From: Marsupella aquatica
Taxonomy: Eukaryota; Plantae; Marchantiophyta
NCBI GenBank assembly: GCA_973895155.1
Contig: OZ316891.1
Location: 19,803,048 to 19,867,047, forward strand
Direction: 5' to 3'
Length of the DNA stretch: 64,000 nucleotides
The notes under the pieces were generated by a model. It was not told the origin of the DNA. It was given only the letters and a program-made list of their open reading frames with translations, and ran no database searches. This document shows, one piece after another, positions 29,001 through 64,000 of the stretch. Every line of letters starts with the position of its first letter. The stretch's first letter is position 1. The translations under genes and the position numbers were made by a program.

Positions 29001-29247
29001 CTTGATACCCCTCTGGAAATGAGACATCGTGCAGACAGGAAATCGGCAGGTCTACATCGTCGCTAATTGCCATCGACAGTTCCGCTGGGGTCGAGAGTTT
29101 GGTCACAGCGTCTGATTCTTCTTCCGCTCCAACCCCATTGACGCCAACAGATGGCGCCGTACTTGCATTCCCACGACTGTGTTTGTGCGGTGAGCTTGGG
29201 GAAATTGCTTCCAGCACCCCGTTCGCTTTTCTCTTCCCTTTCTCCAT
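23014..29247 (-). CDS. MTR4: Exosome-associated DExH-box RNA helicase MTR4 (Ski2-like), 14 exons, ~1030 aa. Exons: 29247-28879, 28430-28230, 28044-27826, 27664-27329, 27130-27026, 26830-26720, 26369-26119, 25786-25663, 25525-25225, 25086-24935, 24789-24643, 24288-24056, 23805-23541, 23292-23014
   Basis: AHTSAGKT (motif I), [28 protein letters not shown] and C-terminal [14 protein letters not shown]. All introns are GT-AG with consistent phases and the exons total 3093 nt. [38 protein letters not shown] and [17 protein letters not shown] match plant MTR4 rather than HEN2. Confidence 0.96.
28572..28580. promoter_or_regulatory. Telo-box (AAACCCTAA) in MTR4 intron 1
   Basis: taaccttaaaccctaaacct. 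Telo-boxes are established elements of plant ribosome-biogenesis genes. A site-II-like TGGGCT (~29439) and GGCCCCAC (~29413) lie upstream of the ATG. Confidence 0.5.
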
Positions 29248-34303: not shown

Positions 34304-35536
34304 GTGAAATTCTCGTATTTCTTTCGTTTGAACCATCCTCCTCCTCCTTCTGACTCAGCATTTTTGGCTTCGCAATCAGCTCTCATTCTAGCCAGTGTGA
34401 TCTCTTCTCGAAGCATGTTTTGTGGAGTATGAGGGTCTTCTATTCTCTCTTTGTGTCTTCTCGACTGTCGCAAAGCATCGGATGTGCATGGAATAGACGG
34501 TCTGTGAAAAGTTAAATTAGTCAATTTTTTTTGTTTCTTCGATGCCCCTATTACTATTTTGTTTGCTGCACTTGTGTTTGTAGACATTGTTTGATCCGTT
34601 GTCTTGATTCGTTCCCCAATTTTTGTTCTCTCTCTAGCTCTTACTCTTGAAGAGTGTCTTGCTCTTCTCCTTCCGATTCTTTGGCTCTCATCGTTAGTAT
34701 CTCTTGTACTCTTTCTTTTTTTCATTCCTCGAAACTTGAGCAACTCAACTCCATGATCTATTCTACATTCATGAAAATGGTCGAAAAAATGTTGGTTTTA
34801 TTTAGATCTTAGTAAACCAGGACATAGTCCTATGTCAAAAAGCATCGGGCAGTTTAAACACATTGACTGGTCACAAAACGTCGGAGGTGCCTAAAACTAG
34901 ACTTGTCTCTAAATCAAAAAATCTGGGGAATCCACGTTTCTTTAATGGACAGTGGTGGTCTAATCACAAAAGACCCTGTTAAAATAAGCACCCCTAAAAT
35001 TAGAAGTGAAATCCTTGTACTTCTTTTGTTTGAGCCCTTCTCCTCTTTTTGACTCAGTATTTTTTGGCTTCACAATTAGTTCTCGTTCTAACCAGTATGA
35101 TCTCTTATTGAAACATGTTTTGTGGGGTGTAAGGGTCTTATTCTTTTCTTGTGTCCTCTCGGCTGTTGCAAAACACAAGGCGTGTATGGAGTAGACGACA
35201 TCCGACAAATTGAATTAGTCAATTTGTTCCGTTTCTTCGATGCTCCTATTACTACTTTGTTTGTCATACTTATGTTTGTGGACATTGTTTAATCCATTGT
35301 CTCGATTTGTCCCTCAATTCTTGTTCTCTCTTTGACTCTTGCTTTTGAAAAGTGTCTTGCTCATCTCCTTCCGATTCTTGGGCTCTCATCATCAATATCT
35401 TTTGTATTTTTTCCTTTTTTCATTTCTCAAAATTTGAGCAGCTCAACTCCATGATCTATTCTATATTCAAAAAAATGGTCAAAAAATGTTGGTTTTGTTT
35501 AGATCTCAGTAAACCAATGCATAATCCTATGTCTAG
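34304..35536. repeat. Diverged direct repeat pair of ~530 bp (34304-34838 and 35006-35536)
   Basis: Collinear: gtgaaat...gactcag.attt..ggctt...catgttttgtgg...ctcaactccatgatctattcta...agatct.agtaaacca. Confidence 0.85.
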
Positions 35537-39129: not shown

Positions 39130-42100
39130 TATATGAGTCCAAAATAATTGAGGATGTCCTAGAAGAACTTGAGACCCTTCAAAACACGGTGAAGGAGAAA
39201 GATGAAGAGATTAGTATGATTAGAAAGGATTATGCTGCCAAATATTTTTGAGCTCAGCGGAACCATCTTCAGACATGTTAGGAGTTGTGCCTAGTTATAA
39301 AGGAGATCGCAATTGCTAAGTTGAAGCATGGTTAGCCACCAAAATCCAATCGTCAATTCATGGTGTTTTGAAATGCGTCTTGAAGGCGACAATTAGAGGT
39401 GTTATCTTCAAGGGATCGTTATTGCAAAGCCTAAAAGGTTTTGGAAGTACTTGGGTGTGCTTGTTGATTGTAAAATTTCAAGCACTAGAGCACCAAAAGA
39501 AGAACTTGGTCTTTCTAACAGTGACAGTGAAGGATCGCCTTGATTGTGGATATAGCTCAGAGTTCTCTCTTCATGCTGAACAATATTGTTGTGCACATTG
39601 TCTAGAGCCAAATGATGCGACAATGAACATAACTTCCTTAGGATTTTTTCATCCATCTACTTATTGTTTCATGGATCCAGATAATGGTCTCGCTGCCAAG
39701 GATGTTGTTGTAGGGCTGGGAAGGATCAATTTTTTGCTCTTTGAAGATTATCAATCTCACATTTCTATGACTAGGCATGTTGTTTATGTCATGTCTCTAT
39801 CTTTATCGAAAGATGACTTGTGGCAGGAGATTGAGATCATTCCAAACATTGCTTTCTTAAAACCAATTGACAAGGAAATGATTAAACGTTGGGTTATAAC
39901 CCATCTTGTAGTAAAAGCTTTCAATTTGAAGGAGAAAAGGCACGGACGTCATGGAGGTGGCCCAAATCGCAAGGCAAGCAAAGTTGTCTAGGAATCTGGA
40001 TCGTCGTCGAGTTCAAATTCAGGATTGTTGAGTTCACAAGGTACATTGGATGAACCAAGCATTGTCCTCAGTGAATCTTTGAGTCCAAAGTTGGTTGGAA
40101 CACATGAGGTCTTAGAATATGAGGACCTCCAATGAAGAACTTGCGGAGGTGGGAGGTTTAGAAGCTGAAGGTGAAAAGGACTCTGAAGCTAAGATGGAGG
40201 TGCGTTTGCACAAGGAAAAGAAAATAAATTGAATTGAAGAAGACGGTCCTGCTTCACGGAAGAAATATTATCTTCAAAGATTGCTTTGAATAAAATTGTG
40301 GGTTCTAAGAAGGTTGAGAAAGTGAAAGCCCCTCAAACAAAAATCTACAAAAGCTCAACCGAGGTGAAAGGGCCACAGATTGCAAAGTCCAAACAACCAC
40401 AGTAGAAGATTCAAGCGACCAAATCTTTTGAACTACAAGATTAGAACAAGGCTATCAAGAAGAAGGTTCAAAAGAAGCAAAAAGTTGTTGAAGAGATACC
40501 AACGCCCATACCAAAGGGTGTTAGGAAGAAGGAATTATCTAGGAAGGCCTCCACGGTGAAGTCTTCCTCTATCGTGAAACACAAGGTCCATCTTCACAAA
40601 TGGTGAAAAATCAAGTGCAAGACGTATCCACAGACATTGGGGTTACAAGATTAGATAAGTCTAAACGTGGAAGAAGCCGCAAATGAGAGACTAAGGGCAA
40701 GGAAGAGGGTCAGGAAACCAATGTTCCAATGTCAAAGTTCTAAACAACGTAAGAAAGTGGAGATGATTGAGATGGATGACATGGTTGACATGAATGCTGA
40801 GATGAATGTTGACTCAAGTTCTAAAGTAGTCATTGATTGAGCTTGACTTGAGAGGGCAGAAAAGAGTTTGCAACAGAATAGATGCTGGTATTCTTTTGGG
40901 CTGTCAAAAGTCTTCCTCATTCCTCTGATGAATATCTATCCTCCACCGGCAAAAATTAATGAGCAGTTATTGAACGAGGACCATGTCAACCATCTTGTTC
41001 AATTGATGATTTCCAATGCCGGTCAGGAACCTTTGCCTGCAGATCTGGTGCCTTACAAGATGATTAATGAAGTTTATAGTCTTATTAATCTTTCAGTCAG
41101 AGATTTTGACTCAAAACAATTATCCGAGTATCAATTTTTTGCAATTAGTGGTCAACACTCGACTATGGCCGCTAGAAAAATTATTCAGAGTTGTCAAACG
41201 CAATCATCTCTGGTTGAGATTGCCAACCTCCTCAAATTTTGATGTGCCAAAATTCTCAAGTGGTCGACACCTGTTAAGGTATTGGTTGAGATTTCACATG
41301 CAAACAACTTGTAGGCTGAAGCACATTGTTTCTTGTCACCAAATGGTCATCGACCAAGTTAGGCATGCAAGAATGAAATGTTCGGAAATGAATCGACCAG
41401 TTTGGCCAGTGCCATTAGGGCAAAAATCTCAAGAATTCCAGGTCTGTTCTTGTCAACACCATAATTCCTTTTGTGGTCCACACGAGCCTTGTGTAGAATC
41501 AGAGACTTGTCTTTAAGATACCTTCTCGAAAAGTTTGGTTTAGTTAGTCGTTCTTACAATTTGTTGTTTGTTGGGTTTCAGGATTACGAAGGGTTGGCCA
41601 AAGTCACATTGAAAGTGAGTAGCATCAGCAAATATAATTGGGAATATAATTGGATTCTTTTTGCATTGGAGAGCCTCTACGAGTTATGGATGTACGTCTG
41701 CAATAGTTGGTTGTCAGGTAGTTTGTCTGACAACAATAGAGGGATGACTGGGAAGAAGAGGGAAGCAAAGCAGCTAACAGGGACAACCTTCAGGGTCTTT
41801 GAGGGGGTGCAAGAATCCAACATTACCTCCATCTTTAATAAAGTTCAATCCGGAGAAGTTCTCTTGATGAAGAGAAGACATGCAAGGACATATATACAAT
41901 TAATGTCCGATCTTGCAATGAAAGTCAAGTATATAAAAAATCTCAAAGGTGCAATCTTGCGGTACTACCATGAGACCTATGAAAATATTTTCAATGTTGG
42001 GGCCATTTGGTCAGACGTGATCTGCAAGTTTAATTTCACCAATAAAAAATTGGATCAATGTTGTTCAATGGTCAACAATGCTTATTTCAAGAGTTTAGTC

Positions 42101-42514
42101 AAAGTCTCTTAAACATTGACATGACAGAACCTTTGAAGAATAGGTTACAAAATATTTACCAGAAGAAATTTGGTGGAATTGTCCGCAAGAGAATGGATCC
42201 ATATCAAATATTTTACTCTGGTAATCTTCTTGCTTCTGCAGAGCCTCCTTTTGATTTGACAAGTTGTAGGGAGAGAGTTGCCAAACTCGACTATCTTAAC
42301 ACTTAGCTTTGATATTGCTGACTCTGACGTTGAGCTCACCTATGGTCCAAGCCCGGATAGGCCATCCGATGAGGACTTAGCATTACTTTGTAAACAAGAA
42401 CATCCAGGGCCTTTAAAAGAAATTGATTTCAATTCAAAGTCCTTAAACATAACATTCCTTAACTCAGTAGCACCACAAATCATAAAAACTTTCATACAAA
42501 ACCAAGCAAATTGA
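39130..42514 (+). pseudogene. Large spliced TE-borne gene(s): unknown N-terminal domain, K/E-rich linker, ParB/Sulfiredoxin-like domain (40868-41320) and a helical C-terminal region; many stops and frameshifts
   Basis: FLIPLMNIYPPP...LNEDHVNHLVQLM...YQFFAISGQHSTMAARKI...VLVEISHANN fits the ParB/Srx (DGQHR-like) pattern. A phase-0 GT-AG intron at 41442-41581 joins ORF 41067 to ORF 41471 in frame. Confidence 0.6.
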
Positions 42515-42899
42515 TAACTCAAATAAGGACTATATATTAGTAATTGATTTTGAGGGAGAGCCAACATCAAAGCTTCCTCCGCAACTGATAGAATGTTTTT
42601 TTCATAATCTTCTCATTGTTCAAAACATATCCCCATGTGCCCTCAGTGTAGATGCCTGCATCATGATATGATAATGTTGTATGCCTTATACTTCTTTGCC
42701 TCACCTTTACATCTTTACCCCCCTTGACATTTATGTGTGATGCGCAAGCATGACAACTCCAACGACAATCATGTACCACATAGACATTGGGCTAGTGGAA
42801 CAAATAGAACCACGTTACTAGAGTAGTTAGAAACATTTTTTGTAACATGCATTATCAGTAAAATGTGGTCCATCAAGTTGCAAACATTCATGGGCTCAA

Positions 42900-43427
42900 A
42901 CTGACTTTCCCAAGTCTAGTGTGCAGAGACCTTCTAATTGCTTCATCACCAGCAAGCTTTATTTTTTGATACACAGGATCTAAAAACATGTCCACAACAA
43001 TAAATGATAAATCGGAATCAACAAATCTCTTTGTTTGTCTTGCTCAAATTATCCTATTGATACCCCTCAAAATACACTAAATCAAAGTTGGTGTATATAA
43101 GCTACCATCTTTCTTCTTCACTGGCAAAGTGAATTCAGTCGATAATTCAGCAAGTTTTGTCTGATCATCCTTCTCAAAAAGATCACCAATGGAATTCTTA
43201 GTATCTATTTCTTTCCACTATCTTTACTCATTAAAAAGTTTTTGCGATCACTTCTCACCGTCTTCAAGTCTAGCTCTCCTACCACCCATTGTAATGTTCA
43301 AAGCTTCCACCGCATCAATGCCACCAAATTTAGAAGTTTCCCAATATTCTTTCTTCCCTAAATACAACCCCTGACAAATACCTCCAAAATCACTTTCAAC
43401 ATTGAGTTCTTTCAGAGTAGATTCCAT
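42900..43427 (-). pseudogene. Crypton-type tyrosine recombinase, N-terminal core-binding region (DUF3504/QRICH1/ZMYM-related), disabled; catalytic part not seen
   Basis: Single frame from ATG 43427: ...EK*SQKLFNE*R*WKEI...KLAELSTEFTLPVKKKDGSLYTPTLI*CILRGINRII*...MFLDPVYQKIKLAGDEAIRRSLHTRLGK. This matches the Crypton consensus KWA..F.EW..R...L..F...V(R/K)K.DG..Y.P.S.....GI.R...DP.F.......D........GLG. Confidence 0.7.
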
Positions 43428-44123
43428 CTTTATGTAAAATTAACAAAACAGAAAACCTTTATATTAAAAAAATATAAATCTAGACATGCAAATTTCAGAA
43501 GCCACAAATTGTTGAAAGCTATCTTATGAAACACTACTTGTCAACTAAGAAAGCGAAAGAAGAGCCTTCAAAGCTAGAAGACACAACTCTCCAATAAATT
43601 TCAATGACACCCCACAACTAACCACTCATACTACTATCTAAATACAAGTGAATAAAAAAAATTCAGATTCTTATATTCAAGTTTAGACAAATTAGTTCAA
43701 AGATTGTGCATTTAAAGTAGTATTTTATATATTTTTCATTCTTGTGTGGACAACACAACATAAAGACAACCTACTACACTCGCTCTATGGAAAATAAACT
43801 ACAATTAAAAAATTAAATCTTGAAGACTTGAAAAATAATGTCTCTCAACCCAGTTCTTTAACTTTCTTGCATGACCATTTAATTTGAATTTATTATTTTA
43901 GAGATTCACTTTTTCTTGTTTGTTACCAAAAATTACTCTAGTTTTGACGTATATTAATATCCTAGTTACGAGCCTTATGAGAATAATATCCTCAAAACTT
44001 GGGTTACCACCTTCCTTTTAGGGTATTATATTGTACAATGTCCATTAACTAGTATATTATCCTATTCAAACAAGTGGTCTAGTATGGATGCATGGGAAAA
44101 TGGAGTTTATTATGTAAGTGGTT

Positions 44124-44458
44124 TGTGTTTAAATACTATTGAATCTCATATATTGTCAACTGTGAATTGTGTTCAAATATTATTAAGTCTCATATATTGT
44201 CAATTAGTTGGTGTGTTCAAATACTATTGAGTCTCATATATATTGTCAATCAGCTTGTTTGGAATGGGAAGAGCCAGATTATCAAATAAATGAATAGTAT
44301 TTAAATACTATTAAGTCTCATATATTATCAATGTAAATCAATTGGTGTGACTGTTCAAATACTATTGAGTCTCATATATGTCAATCATTTAGTCTGGCAT
44401 GGGAAAAATAAAATTATCCAATAAATAAATAGTGTTCAAATACTATTGAGTCTCATAT
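44124..44458. repeat. Array of six ~30-bp repeats (AAATACTATTGAGTCTCATATATTGTCAA) with variable spacing
   Basis: Copies at ~44131, 44175, 44219, 44303, 44357 and 44438; ATGGGAA(A/G)A recurs at 44091, 44264 and 44399. Confidence 0.85.
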
Positions 44459-47400
44459 TAGCTTCTACAATACAAGATTGTGTCTTTTTTCCCATGGTCA
44501 TCATTCAAATTTTTAGGGCACAAAAAATAAGAAATCTGGTCAAAGGAATGAATAAAGACAAAATAAATTTAGTTTAGTGTGAATGAAAAAGAGTCACACC
44601 AATGTCCAAGTAGGAGGGAATCAAATGGGATAAGCAAACAAAAAATGAACACCACTAAGACAATACAAAAGGCTCAAGGATGATTCTCCTTCCATGATCC
44701 ATGATAGGGGGTACTGTACATACTCAATATATAAGGTGTACATACTCAATAGAGTGAGATAATGCATAGTTTGGGTATAATATTGGAATGAGTTAAATTT
44801 CAAATATTATTTCAATCAATAGGGGACTACATACATTAATAAAATAAAACATTATTCTCCCAATATTTAGGGTGATTTTTTTACATTCATTTTTTGGGTC
44901 ATTTTCACAATCAAAAAACCAAAAGTTATAAGGTCCAAAGACATAGTAAAGATCGATCATGGCACAGACGTTGATGGCAAGGTGTCGGGAAATGGGCATA
45001 TTTTTACTTAACATCTTTTTACTTCATAATATCTTTCACATAACGACCCATTTGGCACCACATCATCTTTGTACTCGATGACATCTTCTTTTGTTTTAGG
45101 TGTTTAGTGACGCAAGGCTTGCACACCAACCACCACCCTGGTTTACTTTTCTTTTGTCTCAGTTGTTTCTTCCCTTTGTTACCCCTATTGTTACTTTTCT
45201 CCCTAGTGTGACCTGGTGACATTCCCTCTGGTATCCCTTTGATGCAATATTGGTCGTTTAGGTGTATTAACATAGGCCCTCTTGCTTGTTACCTCTTTGT
45301 GTCCTTTGTTTGTTTGGGTCTTCTTACCAAGTGAAACATAACAATATTTTAATTGTTTTTTCAAAACTTTTAGAAGCCTCCAAGGGGGCATCAAGCCCGA
45401 GGTACCTGAGCAGGTGCGAGGTAAGAGGGCCGAGGGAATTTTTACAAGGCAGGGGGCCCAAGGTGGCTTGCAGCATTTAAGAGGGGTGGATAGCACCTCC
45501 CCAAGAAGGTAGTAGGTGCCCCCACTCCCGAGGAACCAGCCACGAGGGGAGGCAAGCTCAAGGCAAGCATTAAAGAGGGGGGCTTGACGCCCTATGAGGG
45601 ACTATTAAGGTGGGGAGGGGCGCTTACAAGGCACCTGGAGCAAGGAGCAAAGGAGGAAGGGGAGGGGGAGTTTGCAGCTCTCTCCTCTTGGGAGCATTTA
45701 ATCCCCCGAGCCTGAAGCAACATTTAAGGCAATGGGACAATGAGGAACCCCTCCCAAGGAGGGCGTACCATCCCCATCATGCAAGAATCCTCTCTTGAGG
45801 TGGGGGAATGGGCCCAAGGTGGTAGGAGGCCCTCCAAGGAGTCTTGCATGGCTAGCGGGTGAGTTTGGCTCGACTAAGTGATACCTTGCGATGGGGTTCC
45901 GTTTTGCAAGAGATTACTTGGAAGAATAAGAGAGGAGCGGATGCTCTCAATTTTTGAATTGTGTGGACTAGCAAAGGTGCTCAGTGGAGCTTGGTGATTT
46001 GTTTGTTTGTTCGTTGTTTGTTGGTGCCGATTGTTGGTGGATGGCTTGTTGATCATTGATGAAAGTCACTGGTTGGTGATGATTGACTGAGTGTGGAAGC
46101 ACTATTGAAATCCTATGAGAGTACTTTGATCAAGATTTGATTTTTGAAACTGTTTGGTTGGATGCAGAGTGATTAAATCTGATTGCATGGAGAGCTTATG
46201 GTAATGGGTACGCTCATTGTACATGCCGATGAATGGTTGTGTAGAAGCTATGTTTGTTGCTGGTTAGAGAAGGCTTGCTGCAAATTTTTTGTGATGAACA
46301 AAGGTTATGCAAAAGCTATGCTGAAATTTTGATAGAACCTATGTTGGATGGATAACAACTAGAAGCTTTATTGCAATTTTGGATGGAGTGCCCGATGTGG
46401 TTGCATTGGTGAAGTTTGAGTGAAAAATAACTTTAGAGGTGGACATTGTGCACTTCTAATGTTCACTCGAATCTTGGTTTGTTATTGACGGTTTTTGGAG
46501 GGGATTTGGTGATGGAATTTCAACTGAAATTGTGGTGCAATTGGTTATTTTGTGGACTTCCATTGTTCACATATTTTGTGTCTAGTTTGGAGGTAAATAG
46601 GGGACTACAAACAAAACATGCTTAGAGGCTAACCTAGCTTGTGAGACACATGGCATCCCAAAGTTATGTGGGTGGCTCACTTAGGGAACCAAATCTACTT
46701 TAGTGGGGTTTTAGGAGCAAGTTAAGAGGGGGAATGGGCCTTAGATCCTATTGGGGCATGGCACGTGGCCAACTTTTGCTTGTGTAGGGCTTCCCAAGGC
46801 TAGTAGCGTCTGATTGGCTGCTCCTTTTGCCGTATCCGGTCACGTCCTGGCACATTTTGCTGTATTTGAATGCTCTATACCATATTTTTTGCGGTATCTT
46901 CATATTTTGGCCATATCTTTGACATTTGGGCTGATTCCCTGCAATTGCCGTTGCGGGAAGCTTCCTCTATGATTGTCACAGTAGAAAACCCAAGAGCTCA
47001 TTTTTGCATTTTGTTCGACACCATTTTGACCCCCCTGTGGTTGAGTGGCCATATCTTGGTTGTCGGGACACAACTCGACACATCAATTAAATAGCTACAC
47101 GCGGTAGCTTGTTGGCTATTCAGATCAATTTTCCGCTTGAAAATTTGAGAATGTTGATTTTTGGTCATTTTTATGGTACCCTTATTGTGTTGATTGGTGA
47201 CACTTGTGCACAGGATCGGTTTGTAGCAAGGCCAAGTCTAGAACTTATAGGCGAGACACACTCGGGGGTTTCACTTCCACAAAAATGGCACATCACATGC
47301 GACGAAGGATAGAGTCATTTTATTGGTTTGAGGAAAAACTTAAATTTTTTTGCAGAAGAACAATAAGGTCTTTTAAATTCAATTTTGAGACATATAAGAA

Positions 47401-47499: not shown

Positions 47500-50400
47500 C
47501 GAGGCCTAAAAACGTCGCGGGGGATGAGGAGGCATCCATATAATGAGACCCCCGAGAAGACACATTGGAGACTGGAGTAACCAGAGTGGTGTTAGGTTTT
47601 GCCTAGAGGAAGCAAAAGAAGAAAGTATACTAGCTAGGAGCGACACTAGCATGGACCCTATAGTGGAGGAGGCGACGCAGTTGCTATCCTGGTTGTCATA
47701 ACATTCCCGTATCAGTCCCTATAATTGGGACATGGAGCATTCAATGGATAGCCAGATTTGGAGATTTTTGGGAGATGTTGGCACCATGGAGTTGTCACAT
47801 TTCCTCATGGAGTTTGAGCGGTGATATGATCAACAGAAGTTGCACAACACGTCATTCTCCCCTTTCATGGCGTGGCGAGCGTTATTCCAACACTTGGAGG
47901 GGCCGCCAATGCATGACTATGAGGAGTTCTAGATGAGGTATGTTGAGCACATTGAGTCTTGGAGACGCAAGTGGTCTCCAAACTACGTCTCACTCACAGG
48001 TGAAGACATATCCTTGAAGGAGCTAGGAAAAGGGTGCTAGCAGCTCTAGCACACTATTGCCAATCCCCAAGTTCAACCCAGTGCTGGAGTTCTTCAAGGT
48101 GTTGAAGAAGAATTACCAGGGTATTTGAGTGGACAAGTTGTTGAGCCTCCAGACATTCAGCAAGATAGAGGGTGAGAGTTTGCGCAAGGCATATACTCGC
48201 ATGAGGCGATTGATTAGTACCACGGAGGGAATTATAGGTGCATGCTCTATCTATCCAAATTTGGTACCAGGCCCTGGATAAGGATTTGAGAAACCGAGTT
48301 TGGTTTTTGGCGTTGGCCATTGATGAGAAGTTGACACTAGAAAAGGTTTTCCTGCTTTCTCATATAAAAGGAGAAGGTTGTGACCCTTGGATTTTGCAAA
48401 GAGTCCCCTAGAGGAAGTGCTACTAGTATATTTGGTGGGCAACAGCAATAGCAATTAGGGAATGTGCCAAGGAGGACACAACCCAATGTTCCCGATGGTG
48501 CTATTGCTGGAGGCAAAAGAGCAATATCACCCCAATGCCCCTTTAAGCCTTCTTATGCCACGCAAGTTGAGTGTTGGAGCTTTAAGGGATCTCATAACCA
48601 GTGTGATTGCCTTGAGAGGAAGGGTCCACCATGTTCAAAGCAAGAAGAAGCTGTCACTAGATAGCCAGATCTTAGGCATTGTGACCATTGCCATCAAGAT
48701 GGGTATACTATTGAGAGGTATTTTGAGCTGCATCCTAAGATACTACCTAGTTACCACCACAACCAAAGATATACTCATCTTTTCACATAGAGATAATGTT
48801 GCACCCTAGATATATACCAGAATTCAGTATAAATAAAGTGGTGAGAGACACTCTCTCCCCACTCCCACATTTTGATAATTTTTGCATCAAAGCAATACTC
48901 TTTTTATCTCTCATATTTTTTCTACTCTTTGCCTTGTGTACATCGTAGTGAGACAGTTTTTGACCCGAATAGCAAAAGAATGAGTGTTAAAATTATAGAT
49001 GGAGTCTTTAGGGTAAAGTTTCTTTGGGAATGTAAGGTGAGACGTTATTTTGGTCTCAAATAGAAAAAAATATGTAACATCATGAATCCTAGAGAGTGTC
49101 ATTCCCAACCTTTCCCTTTGTAATATATTTTTTATTAGAGTTCATCTTTAATAAGTCTTTCGTGCGATAACACCTAATACACCACTTTGGTTTTAAGTTT
49201 ACTACCACTAATATGAGGTCTAATGAACCCTTAGTCTATCTAGTTGTGTCATACCGAGAGGAATGAGAGTGCATTATTTTTATTTTCTATTAAAGTATAT
49301 CATTTTTCTTCTTTATTAGAATCATCATGGATTTGAATAGAGCCCCCAATGATGTATCTGTTTTATTTTTCTTGGGGATATCCAAATATTTAGTTGTACA
49401 AAGCTCAGTTGTAAAGATATACTGATCGGTAGATATGGAGAAAGCGGCTTCAATAACATATTAGCATCGCCAGAATTGATTGTGATACCCACTATTCTAA
49501 TGACTAAAATTGTTATTTTAATCATAATCTAGGATTTAGTGTCATGCATGATTACCTTCATGAGAGCCAACATGCCCTTTCCACAAATCACGCTCACCGG
49601 AACAGTGAAGAGGTCAGTGGGCTTCTTTTTTGCAATAGCATTGCATTGCTGCTCCTAAGGTTTCACCATAGCAACCACAGGTGACGTTCTTTGCACGTTC
49701 TGCCAAGGTTACTATTGATAGTTGGGAGCCAACTATTGGCCCCAAGATCACTGGAGGTGAGGAATAATGTGTACAATAGTTTCTAGAAAGTTATGGAAGT
49801 TATTTTGCTTTCAACATGCAAGATTTGGGCATGTCAAGGGACCAAGCATCTGAATAGATTTGGTAGTGGATGCGCCCATCTTTCAAAGACCATATCGGTA
49901 ACTATCACATATGGAAAGGATATTGACTCAGGCAAGGTGCCATGATTTGTTGGTAGCGGGATTATGAAGAAGTCATTTGGTGAGTATGCTTCTACCACTG
50001 TGATGCCAACAAAGAAGGATATGCATGGCAATTGGATTGACAAGAAAATGTGTGGAGACTATCGTCCAATTAATCAGTAGAGTAAGTCTGACAGCATGTA
50101 TGTCATGCCCACCCTAGAGGAGATATTTGATGCCATTGGGCATGCAAGAGTGTTTAGCACATTGGATCTCAGGGCTAAATATCACCAGCTGCCTATCAAA
50201 ATTGGTGACAGACAGAAGATGGCGTTATGGGGGATTGATGCTCATGGGAATGATGTGTTGTATCAGTGGCTATTCTTACCGTTTGGATTGAAGAATGTGT
50301 CAACTGAGTTTCAGAGGGTCATGGATCAGATTTTGGCAGACTTGGATTTTGCCAAATGTTATATCAATGACATCATTGTCTACAGTGACACTATGGAGGA

Positions 50401-51770
50401 ACATGCTATACATTTGCAGCAGGTGTTTAGCGGCTGAGAGAGCATGGGCTAAAGCTACATTCTGGCAAATGTAAGTTCTTCCATGACCAAATTGCATAAT
50501 TAGGGCATACCATTTATCCAGGTGGATTGGGTGTGCAGCAGACAAAGGTGGAGGTAATTGCTCGCATCCCTCAACCTACCAATGTGAGTAGTGTCCGAGC
50601 ATTTTTAAGGCTTGAAAACTTCTACCGAAGGTATGTAAAAGATTCAGTGCATATTGCAAAACCTTTGACATTACTTATGAGATTGGACTATGAGTGGCAA
50701 TGGGGTATTGACCAGGATAGAACTTTCCATCAGTTGAAGGAGAAGCTCACATCGGTGTCCACCTTAAGGAGACCTATCAGGGGGCATCTATTCAGGTTGC
50801 ATACTGATTGGAGCAGTGCTCACTCAACAGGATGATGAGGAAAGGGAGTTTATGGTAATATATGCCAATCGATTGAATAACACTACAAAATCAAGGTATG
50901 GCTCCTATGAGGGAGAATGCTTGGTTGTAGTGTGGGCTCATTTTTTTATGTTACTTGTTTGGTAATCCCTTCACTCTTGTTATGGATCACCAACCACTCA
51001 ATGGTTGATGGAGTCAAACAAGCGTACTGGTAAGCTTGCTCGTTGGGCACTCATACTTAAGGAGTATAATTTTGAGGTCTTGTATAGACCTGGTTACTTT
51101 CATCTGGATGCTGATGGATTGGGTGGCAATCCCTGCCCAAGCCAAAGGGATTTGACAGAAGTACGTTGGCATGATAAGGCAGACAAGGAGATGGTGCCAG
51201 GTTGGCATGCTTCTACTTATTTGTGTTTATTACCGAGTGTGGATGATCTTGGTGTAGTGGCATCATTGGAGAGACCCAATGTAGACTTGTAGATCCAGAG
51301 ATTTCTAGTGAGGAGTCTGGTGGACATGATATTCATGATGGTGCAGATGTTGTTATGTATCTGTGCACGGTCAGCATGCCAGGCATGGTAACTGCCAAGG
51401 AGAGAGATTGGATCCTATATACAACGAGCTATGCGGTTTAGGTGGGAAGGATCTCACTTATTGAGAGTTTGGGATGATGGCAAGGTGCAATTGGTACCTC
51501 CTTTATCCCAACGTGCATAGTTGGTGCGACATGCTCATGAAGAGCTTGGATATTTAGGAGTGAAGCGGACATACAACTTACTCCAGACCCAGTATTGGTG
51601 GCGTGGAATGCATGTTGAGATGCAGCAGTTTGTGGCGCGGTGTACTATGTGTGACAACGTGAGAGCATCATTTAATGATCCTACCCCGTAGTTGCATCCC
51701 TTGCCGATCTTGGGCTTGGGATATTGTTGGAGTTTAGATTTTCCTTGACCCTTACCATTGACTAGACGTG
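47500..51770 (+). mobile_element. Degenerate Ty3/Gypsy retrotransposon: gag (47.7-48.8 kb), RT, RNase H and integrase N-terminus (49.8-51.8 kb)
   Basis: MPTLEEIFDAIGHARVFSTLDLR...LPFGLKN...CYINDIIVYS (YIDD mutated); VRAFLRLENFYRRYVK; FRLHTDWS; YEGECLVVVW; KLARWALILKEY; integrase zinc finger HAHEELGYLGVKRTY...YWWRGM...CTMCD. The order RT-RH-INT indicates Gypsy. Confidence 0.92.
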
Positions 51771-52629
51771 GGCAAAATCAAGCTAAAGTGGGGAATCTGG
51801 GCAATCTAATACCCCTTCTAATACCACCTTGGCCACTACGCTCAATACTAGTCATGCAATGATGAGAGGTGAGGGTCGTTGCAAGTACAATGACCATGAA
51901 GGGAGGAAGGGCCAAAATTTAAGTTTGAAATCATTTCAAAGTACCCTCAAATCATTTCAAACTTTGAAAGGTCAGCAAATCCTGACCGTGCCGTGGTAAA
52001 TCATGATCAGCGGTGGTCTTTGAGGGATTAGCATTGGATCTGGACCATGGAGAGGGTGGAAGGAAGATCCAGACCGTTGCATAGCGGGCAATCGGTATCC
52101 AAGTTGGGCGCCAAGTGCGCACTACCTTTCTCTCATATTTTCTTTACAGTAAGTTTGAATGTTGCGTAGAACGCCTGCTCCCAATTCACGGAGTAGAATT
52201 TTATGATCAAGAGTGGAGATCCCACTAGGAAGCAGGCGCAAATGCAACCAGAGGTCTAGGATTACGGTTTTTCCTTCTGTCGCATCCAATTGCTTTGGGC
52301 GGACAAGGGCCCTATAGACAGATGACACTTTGTGAGGGAGAGCCCTCACATCGCTAGAGAACCATTGGTGCAGAGCTAGATTGTGAAGTCTGCGCCCAAT
52401 ATTCCTTTGGAAAGTTTCCTGATTGTTTTTGCCTTGCCCTTTGTTGAATGACTGTCTTTTGTTGCATTTTCATTCTCACCTTAGGCCATATTTTGAAGGG
52501 CAAAGTAATCAAGTAAGTTGTGATGTGCATTTGACACAAATGTCATCAATCTGTCTGTAGGCTAGGCACAAGGGAGGAACTTTGCAGGTGCAAGGGAGAA
52601 ACCGTGGAGTAGCAACCAGGAGATCTCAA

Positions 52630-55288: not shown

Positions 55289-55933
55289 CACTCGCACATT
55301 TTTGTTCCTAGGACTAATCCTAATTGTTGTACTTGTTATGCAGAGTTCTGTAAGAAGTAAGAAGACAGTTGCTTGGTGAATGAAAGGTACAATTACAAAT
55401 GGCCGTCGAAGTTCAAAATAGGGCAAAACATGGACGTCGTTTTACAAAAGTTCAACGTAAAGTTCTTCTGCTTGGTTTGGGAGCGTTGTGGATGGGTGGC
55501 TCTATTCCTGAAGTAGGTTGAATCCGCTACGGATTGAGTTTTGCAGAATGAATGAGGAAGGGATTCCAATTTGTTTGAGGCTGATGTTGGCAGTGTGTAT
55601 ACAATCTCTGGCGTTTTCTTGTAACTTTTGCTGTAGGCGTCTAAGCAACAAGTACCATAAATTGGCATACTTGTGTTGTCAGATTTGGAACAACGATCCT
55701 TGGGTGAACCTTGCACACTGAACATTGCGTTCTTGATGCGTTTTGTAAGGACACCTTTTTTGAACATGATTTCTTAAAGACAAGATTCTAACTCTACCCA
55801 TGTAAAATGAATGGACTACAATTGAGTCCTAATCTTCAGTCCGTGATTGTCTTGCAGGATTGCTAGTGTGGGTATCATCAACTACACTTGGTGACTTGCG
55901 GTACTTTTCTGGTGTCATTAGCACGACTGCTTA

Positions 55934-56506
55934 ATGGCTGTGTCAGAGAACCTACTGGTTTCAAAGTTAGCCTACCTATTGGAGAAGGAAAAGAAGAAAC
56001 ATATTGCTGGAAAAGTGTCTGGCATGGAATCCGGAAGTTTGTTGGATGGACTTCCTGATCAACTCGTTGAGTCTCGCATTTGGCCTATCCTCAAATTGTC
56101 GTGCACAGAAGACGAGTATATTGATGTCAAGATTTCAGTTGAAGAACGATTTGATCGGATAAGAACAATCATTTGTCTCGGATCAACGTCAAAGAAATGG
56201 AACCATCTTGTCATTGGTACACAAAATTGGTGCATACTGAAATTAGCAACTGAAGAGATTAACGGAATAAACAAATTGCTAAGAACAATTCTGAATGCTA
56301 CCGTTCTCTCTAATCTTCATATCGCAAGGGTTTTCCGAGAGGAAACTCATTGGATCCCTCCAATTGATCTGGTTGGATGCCTTTTGGATGAAAATGTGGT
56401 TTCGTGGAGTTTGGCACAATCTAGGAGAAAGTGGGAAGATGACACTTATGGGGATGTATGGAGACATTTAAGGAGGACCATATGGTTGTTTAGGATCACC
56501 GGATAA
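55934..56506 (+). CDS. 190-aa protein with an F-box-like motif; intact ORF within the decayed cassette
   Basis: SLLDGLPDQLVESRIWPIL...LGSTSKKWNHLV resembles the F-box pattern (L.GLPD.L...I...L...V.K.W..L) with an insertion. Confidence 0.5.
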   Translation: MAVSENLLVSKLAYLLEKEKKKHIAGKVSGMESGSLLDGLPDQLVESRIWPILKLSCTEDEYIDVKISVEERFDRIRTIICLGSTSKKWNHLVIGTQNWCILKLATEEINGINKLLRTILNATVLSNLHIARVFREETHWIPPIDLVGCLLDENVVSWSLAQSRRKWEDDTYGDVWRHLRRTIWLFRITG

Positions 56507-56799
56507 GGGATCCCAATGAAGTTGCGATAATTTTATGGCAGTTCACTTTTCATTGTTCCAATTGATGGTTTGCTCGAGAAGAGCTTTTTGTAAGGAACCT
56601 TTTAAATGTGAAGGGCCCTTGGCTGACTTTGTGCTCTGTACGTGGTCCAGTTTGTTGCGGATCAACTGCTGCCGATTGCCTCACACATGGATTGACTTTG
56701 CTGCTCATTTTATAAGGTATGATAGAGTTTGGAATGTTTATGCACTCACATCTCATAACCTTGTAAAAGCGGCCTACATAAATGTTTTCTAAAATTTGC

Positions 56800-57548
56800 T
56801 CATGAATTCCCTTCAATGACCAGGCCATGCTCGAGTGTCGCATTTATGTACCCTGGAGAAATCCTCCAGAATGGGGCAATGGTGCCGTATTTGATCAGTT
56901 GAGGAGGCTCGATCAATCACTTATTTTGAAGATTTTGAGGCTAATTGTCAAACCATTCGATCAAAATAAATATCACTTTTACCTTGACCACAAAGAGGGG
57001 ATAATTTATATCCGGTGGGATAGATATATTTCATGGTGTAAGAGCATTGTCCTGCTCTTCCTCAAACCGGTGTTGTCACACGCCTTATTCTGCACTATTG
57101 TCATGTTGTGAAGGGTAATCCTGATTATGAACCGGAATTCTATGCCAAGAACAAACGTAAAGCATTTGATGAGATCCAGGATGTGATTGACCAGCTAGAC
57201 AATCCTCTTGCCACCGAGTTTGTTATTGACACTGGTGGGAGACTATAGTCATACCGGACCTGTGAAATCCCCCCTCGGCCTCTTTGTGCATTATTTAGGT
57301 TAGTTTATGTATCTTGTTTAAGGACAAATGTCCTTGACAATGGTGAGATGTGTGAGTGTTGCACAAATGCCTGTTGTGACATTCCGTCACGCCGCTATTC
57401 AGTAGTTGTAGTTAATCCTGAGACCGGTGCCACAGATTTTCATTGGTTGTGGGCCTATGATCATAGGATCACTCATATACCCCAATGGCCCAAGAAGCTA
57501 ATCTCTCGCTACGCTGTAGCACGGTTTGATATTGGAAGGGATGATTGA
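56800..57548 (+). pseudogene. Unknown spliced gene remnant with a Cys cluster (CECCTNACC)
   Basis: ORFs 56827-57111 and 57348-57548 with intervening coding-like sequence, a donor-like GT at ~57037 and one in-frame stop. Confidence 0.35.
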
Positions 57549-58303: not shown

Positions 58304-59339
58304 TAAGCCTTATTGTACCAAAAGCTTGCATTTGATAGCTAGCTTTATCACCAGGAACTACGGGAGGGACGCTCCATAAGAAGGAACTACCTCTATTTCC
58401 ATTAAGCCTTTGCTTCTCGTTGAGACTGTGCAAATGTATTTGGTTTCCATCACCAGAAATGGGTATTTTTTGGTTTCCACCGCTGGAAATGTCCCCTACC
58501 CGGCAAAACAACTAATCTAGGTCTCCCCTACCCAAAGAGAAGACTTCTGGACTAACAAAGATCATATAAGCAACATGCTAGACCACAAAGGCCTCAAGAT
58601 TTCAGATAAGTGCACATCACAATTTCTTTCCCAAAAATGCACTGAAATTTCATAAGAATTTCAAAGGAAGTACATGGGTAGGTTGTCACTACCTACTTGC
58701 TATACTTTAGCTTCTTCAACTCCTACTACTTAACACTATGGTCCTTTCAAGCCTCAAGGCATACACTTGAGTTCTAGTACCCCTAGAACATCTACCTTAG
58801 TTCCCCTAAGGTCTCTTAGTGCTACTCCTTGATTCTCCATACTTGGACGCACACAAAGTAACTCACACCAACTTAAGTACTCCTTGCTTGGCTCCAACTC
58901 ATCACAAAGTCCAAAACCACCCAAAAGCCAGCAAGTGACTCACCACTAAAAAAAGACCAGCCCACCTTTCAAGGGGTTCAAAGATCCTTACTTCTCCTCC
59001 TAACTATCTCACTAACTCACTTATTTGTCTTATCTAACTAATGAGCTAGTTGGTGACCTTTTGAAAGCCTAAATCAACTCCTTGATTTCAGCCCTTCATT
59101 CAGGTCCACCTCACCTCCTGACTTGGCTGTCCTATCCCTCCAAATCAGGAACTAAGTCAGCCTCCAATTAAAGTATAGTCATCCCTATCTACCAAATAGC
59201 TCTAAAAATAGTAGAGGGATCAACTTCCAATGACCCTCCAAGTTCCTCCAAAGTCTCCATGTAACTCAGGTCCTTAGGTACCCTTCATGTTGGCTTTAAG
59301 GACTCCACTCCTTAACCTCCTCATTCCTGGACTCCAGAA

Positions 59340-59700
59340 CCATCCTAGGTCCCCTTGTCATGAAAGAGCCCTTCTCTAGGCCTCACCCATCCAATTAGGG
59401 CCTTGCAAATGACCCAAGCATGGTACTTCCTTATTGTATGGGTTAGTGGCTTGGTAATCTGGTTGTCCTCTCTGAAATGCTTGAGGTACACCTTGGTGAA
59501 AGCCCTCAGATTTGAACTTCTGCCCTTCTTGTCCACCTTTGAGCAAGCTAGGTATTGGGCCAGCCAAATGTTGGGGTCAGCATGTGTTCTCCCATGCTTA
59601 CTCTACAAGGTGAACTTAGCCTTGTGGACCAAGGGAGGAAAATGCTGCTCAGGAAGCCCTCTTGGATCAGGAACTCTGGGATCAACCAAATATGCACTTT
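59340..59700 (-). mobile_element. Gypsy pol (RT-RNase H connection) remnant
   Basis: LRAFTKVYLKHFREDNQITKPLTHTIRKYHAWV resembles VRAFLGL..YYRRF...IAKPLT.L.RK...W.W. Confidence 0.55.
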
Positions 59701-59868
59701 GATTGTAGTCCCACTTGACCTCCTTTTAGAGCGTAAATACGATCAAAACCTCTCAAGTAGCCAACAAAATAAAACTATTATAGAACCTGATTTCCAGGAG
59801 AATCTTAATGAACTCCCTTAGAATCCTCCTAGCTCGTGCCAGCCTCTAGCCACCTTCAATAGCTTTCC

Positions 59869-60060
59869 TGTTGTGATATAGGATTCATACATAGTTGGAG
59901 AGGGAGAGAGATTGAATGAATGTATTAATGAATGTATGAATGAATGAATGAATCACTCGGTTGGGGATCAACCGAGTGTATATATAGTGTCTTGAGGTAA
60001 CCATGGTAAAGGTAACCTCCTAGTCTGGTCTAGGACTAGTTACCTCATAACACTCCCCCT
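59869..60060 (-). mobile_element. 3' LTR (59869-60052, 184 bp) plus polypurine tract of a Copia-type element
   Basis: On the minus strand, PPT AGGGGGAG (60060-60053) is immediately followed by TGTTATG...CACAACA; internal TATATATA and (TTCA)n. Confidence 0.75.
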
Positions 60061-60314
60061 TGGCTACATAATGGGAGTTATGGAGATAATCTAGACTAGT
60101 CCTAGAACTAGGTAAGAGAAATCTATGATATTTTTCCCCGTGACAGGAAACAATAGTAACAATCATAACAGGAAAAAGAGAGGAACAAAATAGGAGATTT
60201 GGTACTAGCATACACAAAAGATGACATAATTACCGACAAAAAAGGAGACCAATTTCAATAGGAACTCCAATATGTTTAGAGTTCTATCTAGCAATTATGG
60301 AAAGACAAGTTTTA

Positions 60315-61170
60315 CTAGCGCCGAGCACTAACCAAGAGTTTGTTGCCGTTCAAAACAACATTAACAAAATATCCGTTCAATGTATCGTCGAATGATCCAA
60401 ATTTGTATAAACCATTCAGATTCTCCCTTCCTACGATGACCTGGAGTTCTCCGACATTCAAAATTGGCTGGCTTGGTAAGACCGAATCCATCGGATCAAG
60501 CTTAAAGATTGTTTTGTCAGAGGGTTTTCCATCTGACAGGAACCAGATTCCAGTAAAAGGAAACAACCAATTTCAACAATAAAAAAGCAACTAATAGTAT
60601 TCGCAGCATATTTGGAGGACACTAGAAAAAAGAGAGTTGAAAGACACAATTTTACAGAGGCGGGTTTACATAATTGTGGAGGAGAATAGAACATATATTA
60701 GTAGCGCCAGGTGCTAGCGACACACGCTACTTGAAAAAGAAATTACATTGATATCCAAAAGGTAATAAAAGTCCATAACCTTCGAGAAAAAGAAATAACC
60801 CTAATAACATACTCAAAAAACCTAATGCGATAATGAAACCTGAAAAGCTCACACGTCCGGTGTCTGCTTGGATGTCTCTGAAAAAAGCTATCCTTTCCAC
60901 CCGATACACATTGGAAGGATCCGGGTCGTGAACAGAGAACCTCTCTCGGAAAGGAAGTGGAGGCGAAGGATCACACGACAGAAGGTGTCCAGTTCTTGTG
61001 GCTAATACCCTCATCTGGGGCCAGCCACAACCTGTTCCTCTCGGTCGACGTCTCTGGGCACTGAGTAAAAGATGGAGTCAAATCTAAACCCGGATCTCTA
61101 ATCGACCTCCAAACCATCACCTTTGGCGGATTGCGGCTCTCCAATTTTGCTATTTGCTTCCCCTTATCCA
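60315..61170 (-). pseudogene. Unknown gene remnant downstream of the methyltransferase-like gene (MDKGKQIAKLESRNPP...)
   Basis: Collinear ORFs 60971-61282, 60727-61014 and 60315-60566 with a frameshift and possible introns; no recognised domain. Confidence 0.35.
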
Positions 61171-63567
61171 TTGAGTTGATGGAAACAACAGATGCAAAAC
61201 TCAGGGAGAAGAGAAAAGGTGAGTCCGGGCAGACCAGAAACGAAATGAAGGGAAGAGGTGAGTCTGGGCAGTGCACAAACAAAACAAAGGGAAGAGGTGA
61301 GTCGGCGCCTCATAGAAATGAAAGGGAGAAATGCATTTAGGGTTGAACAAAAACGAAGTTGAACAAACCCAAAGTTGAACAAACACTACACTTTGAGAGA
61401 GTCCAAACGATAATATCAACCACAAACAAAAATACATACAGACTGAAGGTATAATTATTCACCGTACAACTGTACGAGTACATGCATTTCTGATATCTGC
61501 ACAAATATGCACTCAGGAAAGAGACTTCGGGTGCGTCTATCTCCTTTAAAGGCTTAGATCCGAACATCCAATTTAATAGCGTCGGGCGCTAGTACAAGGT
61601 TCCAAAGAAAACCTTAGAAATTCACACTCAACCTACTCCAAGTCAGAAGACTCGGACTCGCTACTGCCAGACCTATCGGTAGACTCGGCTTCATCATCTA
61701 TAAATTCGCTTCTAGGTCCATCGTTGAGTAAAGGCTGATGGATGAATTTCCTATCTGAACCTCTCCTTAACCTTAAGCCCTTACTCTCCCAAGTAAGTGT
61801 TCTCCTCTGTTCTTCTTTTCGTGCAGCATATTCTGCATACGAGGGCAACACAAAAGGCTTCTGAGGAGAAACGAGAACTTTTTTGGAGTATTTCCTCTGA
61901 AGATTAAAATGTTCTTGAAGATTCCACTCCGATCTGGAAGAGGAACGGAACCACATTAGAATTGAAAATGAAAATGGGACAGTTCCAGAATCGATAATGT
62001 AAAGTGAAGTAGCTTACGGGCATTACTTAGAAGAATCTGAATCTTCTGTTTCTTCCGTCATATGCCTCTCCTTCTCATTTTGTTCATTTTCCTCTTGTTG
62101 TCCTCCTGAAGCATCATCTCCAACAGTATCTCCCTCCTGTTCATCTTCAGAGTCAAAATTTAAGACAGAGCAAACTTTATCTTTTTGTTTTCTTCCCACA
62201 TCTTTAGCGGGAGATGAGCAACTGACATCTTTTGGAATCAATAACTCCATCCATGTCTTTTCCGCAATCTCAACAAACTCTTTTCGGCTTTCTATAACAA
62301 GAATAAAACGACCACAATAGTCACCAACAACAAATGTACTTCCCGAACCAACAGTCCAGTCCATGACAATGTCACCCGGCCGAGTGATTAACTCTAACAC
62401 AGATTGCATGAACCCAACGGACAAGCGTCCATTGCCAACAAACACTGCTAAAGGAGTTGGATCCTTCCTCACACTCGGGAGACCAATAAGGTTAGTGATA
62501 GAAGGATCTTCAGTTGCAGAGAGGGGTCAAAACTTGGGGTCCTTTGGAACCTTAACCTTTGACGAAACACGACTGAACAGATCCAATCTCAATGTGAAAA
62601 CCTATGAAATCCCAAGAAAGTCCTTTGTTAAGATGCCGACGATCCAACTAGAAAATCATTACAATCACGACATAACAATGAATTTTGGATAGCGCCAGGC
62701 GCTAACAAAGAATATCCCCTTAACCGAAGGGTATATGAAAACATTTTTAGCTAGCGCTCGGCTCTAACAAAGGACAGCACAAAGAGTGAGATAATTTACC
62801 TGACAATCACTTCGGGCCATGTACATTGGAACTCCCATAACCACGTTCAGGGTTTTCACACACTGAAACTTTTGAGACTCCTGGCTCCCGGCGATGACCT
62901 GCAAGATCTGATCATACTCGCCGGTATGCAAAATGGCCAATATACCATCATCTGCTAGAAAGGGGTCCAATGCGTGAAAGAATGAACCAACAATTCTGTG
63001 ATCTGGGGAATTCTATTTTGGACACTTCTTCTCTAAAAGGGATGGGCGCAGTCCAGTTGGGAGGTAAACGAATCCAGCATCAACTCCAAATGATCTTATC
63101 TTTCCTCCTCTTATGACTCCTTTCTCCCTTAGACCAAGCAAGACCAGGTCTTTCACCCACTTCTCCACATTTGACACCCAAGCCGGTTTCTGCTCTTTCG
63201 TGAACACACTCTCAAAGAAGTCCATTACGCTGGACTCAACAAAAACATGCCTAGAAGTCTTAGACTTGAACTATCCAACATCTCGTTGAACACCAGTAGA
63301 AGCGACCGAATCCCGAGAGGAAAATCCATGATCCGAATATTTTATTTTCTTCATGCAGGTGGCATCTGCTGGTCGCACCATCTTCTCCGTGTTGGAAGGA
63401 GTCTGTTTATCAGGGACATCTTGTTCCCCCATATCAGCTTCAGAGATGCTAGGAGTGATAGTTGTCTTTGCATCTTGTGTTTCTTCTCCATCCGATTTCC
63501 GTCCACCTAGAAAAAGATACAAAAGTTTCCAAGATTACGGTCCACATAACACCAGCGTCGGGCGCTA
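60316..63567. repeat. Six dispersed copies of the 15-bp palindrome TAGCGCCNGGCGCTA
   Basis: 60316-60330, 60702-60716, 61577-61591, 62690-62704 (perfect), 62752-62766 and 63553-63567. Confidence 0.85.
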
Positions 63568-64000
63568 ACCAAACTGCCCAAAAAATCAACCGATAAATAG
63601 ACAACTTGATCTGCAGCGCTCATCAAAAGTCACTGACATAATCAAGCTGGTGGAGAGAAAATACAGAATGCCAATGGAAAATAGAAGAATCTCACGTTTC
63701 TTCCCGGATCTCGTTGATGGGATGGTTTTGCTTTCGCCCGGGGTTTTCGACTCCTGTCTACATGCAAAACTTCTGTTTTGCAATGTTTCTACAGCTCGCT
63801 CGCCGAGGCATCTACATCTTCCGATAAACCTTGTTTCATTTCAGAGAGAACTTTCCGAGGCACTAAAGACTTTGATAATTTCAGAAATGCATCCTTTTCA
63901 ACTTCATCGAAAGGGGTGTCCCACTTATCTGTGTCAAGATACCATGGACAGTGGATTATCTCCCACAATGAAATATCATGTGGTGGAACGTCCCCTTCGG
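61633..64000 (-). pseudogene. Intron-containing beta-class N4-cytosine/N6-adenine DNA methyltransferase-like gene (N6_N4_Mtase-type fold), disabled, 5' end beyond the window. Exons approximately >64000-63696, 63506-62800, 62601-62027, 61933-61633
   Basis: The C-terminal SAM-binding block LELITRPGDIVMDWTVGSGSTFVVGDYCGRFILVIESRKEFVEIA parallels LI...T.PGD.VLDPF.GSGTT..A....GR.FIGIE...EY.EIA. The N-terminal block GVDAGFVYLPTGL..CPK*N..FFHALDPFLADDGILAILH parallels VDLI.TDPPY..W....L...G.I.I. In-frame stops at 63271, 63013 and 62527; GT-AG intron 62799-62602 is phase 0. Confidence 0.75.

Follow-up and report, generated by a model that had tools for sequence, protein, structure and literature searches.

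At the right end of a 64,000-nucleotide stretch of contig OZ316891.1 (the window, below) lies a minus-strand gene with the sequence hallmarks of a beta-class amino-methyltransferase, the class of many phage and bacterial DNA methylases. On balance, we favour the reading that the window holds a dead copy of what is likely an accessory gene of a multi-copy DNA transposon, and that the gene product does not methylate but binds the palindromes of its own element. The evidence comes from the reading frame, from motif IV and the S-adenosylmethionine (SAM)-binding motifs, from the pattern of differences among copies, and from a set of short palindromes that, within the window, occur only in and around the gene.

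Reading frame and splice structure

A single minus-strand frame, running from 63506 to 62027, unites four open reading frame (ORF) pieces across three in-frame stops and a phase-0 intron. A first-pass annotation of the window had proposed this joining through three stops and one GT-AG intron, and the coordinates agree. TAA 62025-62023, the seeming end of the frame, falls inside a likely third intron, after which the frame continues to 61633. Splice sites were deduced from sequence and from intron divergence among other copies. Contigs of other copies diverge over 63584-63678, within intron 1 as drawn here, and in other copies the intron at 62602-62799 is replaced by an unlike 258-nt sequence with conserved exon edges. 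Many homologous gene calls stop at, or slightly beyond, the position of that intron. The upstream piece at 63696-64000 is covered by contigs from multiple copies, with its donor placed at 63695, and has no match in Pfam or PHROGs. The features of the gene, in the order of transcription, are:

63696-64000, minus strand: upstream coding piece, without an assigned family, that contains a stop and probably a shift of frame; the gene continues past the window edge
63507-63695, minus strand: probable intron 1, GT-AG, from splice-site sequence, with one palindrome inside
62800-63506, minus strand: exon encoding a low-complexity linker plus strands 4-7, the catalytic half of the fold, and interrupted by two TAG stops in frame
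63273-63271, 63015-63013 and 62529-62527, minus strand: in-frame stops TAG, TAG and TGA, all in the same frame
63055-63066, minus strand: motif IV position, YLPT, without the catalytic D/N/S and without the aromatic residue
62602-62799, minus strand: phase-0 GT-AG intron of 198 nt, GTAAAT...TTTCATAG as printed in the sequence, two palindromes inside
62027-62601, minus strand: exon encoding the variable region, motifs I-III for SAM binding and an acidic tail, and interrupted by a single TGA stop
62341-62361, minus strand: motif I, DWTVGSG, from the alignment of C-terminal halves
61934-62026, minus strand: probable intron 3, 93 nt, GT-AG, from splice-site sequence and a joint at 61881-61989 in one contig
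61633-61933, minus strand: probable last exon, charged and serine-rich, from continuation of the frame, no family

A beta-class fold with a degenerate motif IV

Along the frame come a strand at the motif IV position, LADDG, a variable region, and PGDIVMDWTVGSGST..CGR..LVIESRKEF.EIA. This is the permuted order of the beta class, in which catalytic motif IV is N-terminal to SAM-binding motif I. The first-pass annotation had read this order correctly as far as the motif IV strand, LADDG, the variable region and motif I are concerned, but its "motif-IV-like block" is YLPTG, which lacks both catalytic residues. The C-terminal part scores 31.5 bits against Pfam PF01555 (N6_N4_Mtase; cut-off 26.7), the Pfam check that the first-pass annotation had named for the class, and the C-terminal exon also matches phage methylase PHROGs. 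The N-terminal exon has no Pfam match, yet it found 32 proteins at E up to 0.001, and both halves occur in the same order in two Calypogeia gene models. By sequence, the best solved relatives are M1.HpyAVI-type DpnA entries (5hek, E 4e-4), followed by CcrM and MboIIA. N6_N4_Mtase clusters made up 20 of 30 Atlas matches, at 0.93. For a comparison with phages, 12 loci were chosen by weak tblastn similarity, mostly in the C-terminal half of the family, and 11 annotated methylases were translated from them. The family profile matched the profile of these 11 at a global 99.1% over 193 columns; its N-terminal half alone scored 36.7 (77.7%), and 30 column shuffles reached a maximum of 14.3.

A structure predicted for the Calypogeia protein P0015 has a mean predicted local distance difference test (pLDDT) score of 60 and is confident over residues 121-290 only. 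MAFFT misplaced C-terminal-only fragments in the family alignments, which probably degraded this model. Foldseek with the model ranked CcrM first (E 8e-4 over 129 columns). Taken without the sequence evidence, the structure would not pick out the beta class, since VIA-align places a tRNA methylase first (below); what the predicted model supports is half of a class I methyltransferase fold, and the class assignment is therefore made on motif order and profiles. Descent from a beta-class amino-methyltransferase fold, as first proposed, is upheld by Pfam, PDB sequences, Atlas, Foldseek and the phage profiles.

In amino-methylases, positions 1 and 4 of motif IV hold and activate the target base (PMC4738411; PMC10406627; like the other papers cited here, these are drawn on for the portions available to us). 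The alignment sets YLPTG of the window copy against DLPYG of two phage enzymes, followed in each by a shared N.WD segment. Counts were taken over 31 rows, comprising the window copy, 29 of the 32 protein matches and one cluster mate. As for the three matches omitted, P0029 is also degenerate and supplies a 32nd row, P0034 stops short of the motif and P0039 is spurious. Position 1 is Y in nine of the 31 rows, A in nine, F in six, S in three, C in three and R in one. Position 4 is T in 21, N in five and another residue in five, and is never aromatic, with L-P at positions 2-3 in 28 rows. Not one of the 32 rows covering the motif combines D/N/S with an aromatic residue. The corresponding pattern is present in six of the 11 phage methylases (two DLPY, three DPPY and one SPPY). 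In the close copies of four sequencing runs, no variant of motif IV reaches a 35% share and the majority read YLPT. At the SAM-binding end, the D, T and both G of motif I and the E of motif II are invariant in six of six aligned C-terminal halves (DWT[VA]GxG). The F of the D-x-F-x-G-x-G consensus is T here, as it is in DNTMGSG of phage MR14.

A degenerate motif IV beside retained SAM motifs predicts a family that binds SAM but does not methylate DNA bases. Based on the established chemistry of motif IV, we infer that the family carries out no amino-methylation and is likely a pseudo-enzyme. By the same motif, its product would fall outside both the active beta-class methylases and the DN4MT1-type writers of N4-methylcytosine (4mC). 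The first-pass annotation had suggested that the family may methylate or bind its own DNA and could be a relative or source of plant 4mC writers. Neither methylation nor such kinship is supported by the motif IV counts: nine rows read ALP[TN], and changing SPPY to APPA abolishes the activity of rotifer N4CMT (PMC8885841). We regard it as quite unlikely that the family is an active 4mC or N6-methyladenine (6mA) writer with a non-canonical motif IV, marking its own element, perhaps at a CCNGG core of the palindromes. Such a writer would suit the beta-class order and the phage relatives, and three of the 31 rows do have S at position 1; however, a base-stacking aromatic residue, or D/N at position 1, is found in none of the 32 rows, and YLPT is shared by most close copies. 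The nearest bacterial relatives of N4CMT recognise CCSGG (PMC8885841), and a CCAGG core is present in two of the seven palindromes.

A changed substrate is also unlikely, though less so. The family would still be an enzyme, one that benefits the element by methylating some target other than DNA (a protein, an RNA or a small molecule) with SAM as donor. The invariance of motif I and of the motif II acid, the conserved L-P of motif IV and the purifying selection described below are all in keeping with this. In contrast, position 1 is free to vary among Y, A, F, S, C and R, and the only invariant residues in the catalytic half are P and F, with no new invariant polar residue.

A selected family and a dead copy

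Six sequencing runs from three related organisms contain parts of 60200-64000, up to 42% of its words. In four of the runs, 59500-64000 collected 982, 686, 152 and 121 contigs, numbers that are inflated by a long terminal repeat (LTR)-type repeat at the left. A 561-nt core collected 101, 56, 48 and 31 distinct contigs in four runs, at 80-99+% identity, although contig depth does not equal copy number. That many divergent contigs cover the exons, the introns and a second gene points to a dispersed repeat. It spans introns, intergenic DNA and the second gene over at least 3.8 kb. Among 20 proteins looked up, five carried an organism name, and these are five Calypogeia fissa paralogs on five scaffolds that differ in length. 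They form one clade with support 100/99, apparently a parallel expansion. Contig counts and the Calypogeia paralogs thus bear out the first-pass claim of a multi-copy dispersed family.

The first two stops of the window copy read as sense codons in all covering contigs of other copies; the third, 62529-62527, sits at the edge of the compared stretch, where contig pieces begin, and the comparison covers the first two. To be listed, a difference had to reach a share of at least 35% in some run, and 10 rows outside the exon were omitted. In exon part 62800-63075 there are 27 listed differences, 20 of which segregate among the other copies and seven of which are private to the window copy, a class that may include species differences. 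The segregating differences are mostly at third positions (17 of 20, p 3e-6), with 15 silent and five replacement. The private changes show the opposite pattern, one silent and six replacement (Fisher p 0.009 against the other copies). Other copies thus differ mostly by silent changes and the window copy mostly by replacements; therefore, the family is under purifying selection and the window copy is dead, a pseudogene. Over 62515-63075, seven of 15 near-fixed differences are C-to-T changes in the window copy, six of the seven at CG or CHG, as expected for a silenced, decaying insertion.

Palindromes and the extent of the element

Three further features belong to the repeat:

60316, 60702, 60715, 61577, 62690, 62752 and 63553 (span 60316-63567), no strand: seven 15-bp palindromes, TAGCGC-N3-GCGCTA, with at most two mismatches
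60318-61171, minus strand: another decayed gene within this repeat, likely interrupted by an intron at 60852-60533; its multi-copy cover is continuous with that of the methylase-like gene
60127-60145, no strand: likely element end, adjoining an LTR-type repeat, placed by contig departures

That the element has palindromic repeats of its own was a first-pass observation that stands, since within the window the seven sites are confined to 60316-63567. None was found elsewhere in the 64 kb, and when 60201-64000 was shuffled 500 times the count averaged 0.014 and never exceeded one. All seven fall outside the exons of the methylase-like gene, in its non-coding parts and in intergenic gaps. The palindrome at 62752 is imperfect in the window copy and perfect in other copies. 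The palindromes include CG and CHG sites.

The second gene, at 60318-61171, has no match in Pfam and no family was found for it. Upstream of it, a 39-nt unit is repeated in tandem three to four times (61208-61359) and a 16-nt unit occurs three times (61342-61389). At the left, five contigs of one run depart at 60138, beyond which their flanks are unlike (agreement 0.68); those of the LTR repeat depart at 60126. That short LTR-type repeat, at 59870-60061, has very high depth; on the minus strand it reads TG...CA and follows a polypurine tract. CpG is nearly absent (0.10 of expected) from the retro-like DNA at 58500-60130. The window ends inside the methylase-like gene, and the far end of the element is outside the window. 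Pfam detected no ParB-like domain in the upstream piece, of which the window includes 300 bases.

Two other explanations were weighed. One is that the sequences are an expanded host gene family, or a tandem set of pseudogenes, and not a transposon gene. Spliceosomal introns at a conserved position, purifying selection, a CpG content like that of host genes and the lack of a visible transposase would all fit. However, the repeated unit takes in non-coding DNA, both intronic and intergenic, as well as a second gene, and its palindromes are its own. Where it borders the LTR repeat it likely ends sharply, other copies having unlike flanks there, and the Calypogeia copies are spread over five scaffolds. 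We find this explanation improbable, about as much so as an active DNA methylase. Least probable of all is that the gene was left behind by an integrated DNA virus, or by a virus-like mobile element, that brought in a phage-type methylase. Phage methylases are indeed the nearest characterised sequences, but IMG/VR returned no relative in two single-protein queries that reach close relatives only, the ORFs tested include no viral hallmark genes, and the gene has several spliceosomal introns. Scans of metagenome contigs, again with a reach of close relatives only, gave no confirmed relative.

A proposed role at the palindromes

Under the transposon reading, the gene would be cargo of a DNA transposon, presumably of the cut-and-paste type, in a seed-free plant that is likely a liverwort, to judge solely by the Calypogeia fissa origin of the five named homologues. 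Its product would have the beta-class fold minus the base-binding catalytic residues, with predicted SAM binding retained, and would work without methylating DNA, by binding the palindromic sites of the element. The remaining steps are the least secure. The intact protein would probably include a DNA-binding part encoded beyond the window edge; in the algal analogues described below, that part is ParB-like. A dimer could sit on the palindromes in introns and intergenic gaps. Such binding might shield or organise the element against silencing by host 5-methylcytosine (5mC), in the manner of VANC of the VANDAL transposons, a suggestion made because the palindromes contain CG and CHG. Taken by itself, this anti-silencing step is doubtful.

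Several observations weigh against this reading. The protein and the palindromes are tied by co-occurrence only, and a transposase or the product of the second gene could be the binding partner instead. Within the window, neither a transposase, a pair of terminal inverted repeats nor a target-site duplication was found. Searches for longer or fused relatives, of 337-2000 and 794-2265 amino acids and both weak, found none; the upstream DNA-binding domain is therefore hypothetical. With regard to the fold, the SAM-binding half of the predicted model is of low confidence (C-terminal half below 50), and VIA-align placed the tRNA methylase Trm14 first (Z 8.6, 83 residues, root-mean-square deviation 3.2), with the beta-class enzymes CcrM, MboIIA and M1.HpyAVI at Z 5.7-5.8 (CcrM 5.8) and matched over their N-terminal halves. 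A profile built from the family alignment gave no matches to PDB sequences. Invariant SAM motifs suit an active enzyme with another substrate equally well as a pseudo-enzyme. Finally, CpG content is weak evidence for escape from methylation. The element has 0.65 of the expected CpG without its palindromes and 0.57 in its non-coding part; the latter value is that of host intergenic DNA (0.56), although it lies above the neighbouring retroelement debris (0.10 and 0.31).

Relation to known systems

In the literature, the nearest parallels are methylase genes that DNA transposons of algae carry as accessory genes, which the first-pass annotation overlooked in treating eukaryotic examples as rare horizontal acquisitions. 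Sola1-1_Ec32 of Ectocarpus encodes an accessory protein with ParB-like and N4-cytosine/N6-adenine (N4C/N6A) methyltransferase domains (PMC12477816). It too is a case of a eukaryotic DNA transposon with an N4/N6 methylase domain of prokaryotic type, and it is proposed to bind and modify its own element. Compared by description, it differs in coming from a brown alga and in being a 1104-amino acid ParB fusion that is predicted to be active, whereas the window family is from a land plant and has lost the catalytic motif family-wide. Plavaka elements of Bostrychia encode PAG2, with PF01555 and SET domains, and PAG3, with ParB-like and 2-oxoglutarate (2OG) oxygenase domains, next to inverted-repeat arrays (bioRxiv 2025.02.11.637652). 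Here again a PF01555 domain is transposon cargo, and the inverted repeats of the element are proposed as binding sites. However, these are red algae with tandem arrays; the palindromes of the window element are single and dispersed, and no SET or oxygenase domain was seen in it, also by comparison of descriptions.

The order IV-V-VI-VII, variable region, I-II-III is shared with phage and bacterial beta-class enzymes (CcrM, 6pbd; M1.HpyAVI, 5hek; MboIIA, 1g60). The family differs from them in the replacement of motif IV residues 1 and 4, in RLS/RMS where they have HPTQKP, and in its introns and long low-complexity extensions. DLPY-type genes of Synechococcus phage ACG-2014f and Pseudomonas phage MR14 also have N.WD after motif IV and a D-x-T/C-x-G-x-G motif I, and we infer an origin of the family from a DLPY-type phage methylase.

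The two known eukaryotic 4mC writers, MpDN4MT1a/b and bdelloid N4CMT, are likewise eukaryotic genes of beta-class origin, and N4CMT also has introns. Unlike the window family, they are low-copy host genes with shown 4mC activity, and their motif IV is TSPPY in MpDN4MT1 (bioRxiv 2021.02.12.428880) and SPPY in rotifer N4CMT (PMC8885841). The window family is multi-copy, contains no SPPY, and is set apart from MpDN4MT1 by the published motif. Two further papers, in the portions available, restate these two writers only (PMC12344493; PMC13054798). A predicted dead amino-methylase fold kept by a mobile element is known from the inactive N6A-methylase domain of DIRS1 retrotransposons (PMC4738411). 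That domain, however, is PCIF1-derived, unpermuted and part of a retrotransposon polyprotein, whereas the window family is permuted, phage-like and intron-bearing.

VANC of the Arabidopsis VANDAL elements is a functional analogue only. The motifs that VANC21 binds lie in the introns of its own element and between the genes there (PMC5735166), and the likeness is of an element-encoded protein paired with short motifs in such places. VANC is an unrelated protein whose motifs are non-palindromic and in tandem repeats, and its binding and demethylation have been shown, whereas the window element is known from sequence alone. Transposons known to bind their own copies and to change the chromatin there are few; the available text of the Bostrychia paper (bioRxiv 2025.02.11.637652) names VANDAL alone as shown. 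A diverse land-plant family of cargo genes with a methylase fold, under selection yet predicted to lack catalysis and lying next to private palindromes, would allow binding and marking to be told apart directly as the mode of action of such accessory genes. By analogy, bryophyte DNA transposons might keep a disarmed phage methylase as a sequence-specific anti-silencing protein that binds palindromes dispersed in their own introns, which would make a second VANC-like system, of independent prokaryotic origin, across seed-free plants. We consider this wider idea doubtful. More practically, PF01555 matches in bryophyte genomes should be checked at motif IV before being counted as DN4MT1-type 4mC writers. 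No account of this land-plant family was found in the openly accessible literature searched; subscription papers and bioRxiv supplements may bear on the point.

Other sequences in the window

A decayed long gene occupies 39300-43300 on the plus strand. One segment of it, SGQHS, has what we take to be a ParB/Srx-like resemblance, with a negative result in Pfam. It is followed at 44118-44468 by about six 44-nt units in tandem, with a palindromic core, a layout like that of Bostrychia PAG3 with its inverted-repeat arrays. No link of this gene to the methylase family or to ParB-methylase proteins emerged, as profile comparisons gave below 1% probability and neither Pfam nor Atlas returned anything. 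An AT-rich, heavily decayed, coding-like stretch lies at 31500-34000. A weak match to the family profile at about 32.9-33.1 kb (E 0.004, 48 residues) was treated as chance.

Among the remaining genes, 23400-29400 on the minus strand is presumably a host gene for an MTR4-like DExH helicase with many introns, and 594-1826 on the plus strand is what we take to be a host R2R3-MYB factor, both labelled by eye and pointing to a plant host. Decayed pieces at 48400-52000 on the plus strand, in which motifs of reverse transcriptase and of RNase H were picked out by eye, are assumed to be of Ty3/Gypsy-like gag-pol origin. ORF pieces at 55922-57548 on the plus strand are F-box-like (LPDQLVESRIWP) and have no Pfam match. 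The window also contains a tandem repeat array (18634-19083), a 170-nt fold-back (7079-7247) and a 530-nt direct duplication with 82% identity between 34304-34836 and 35006-35533.

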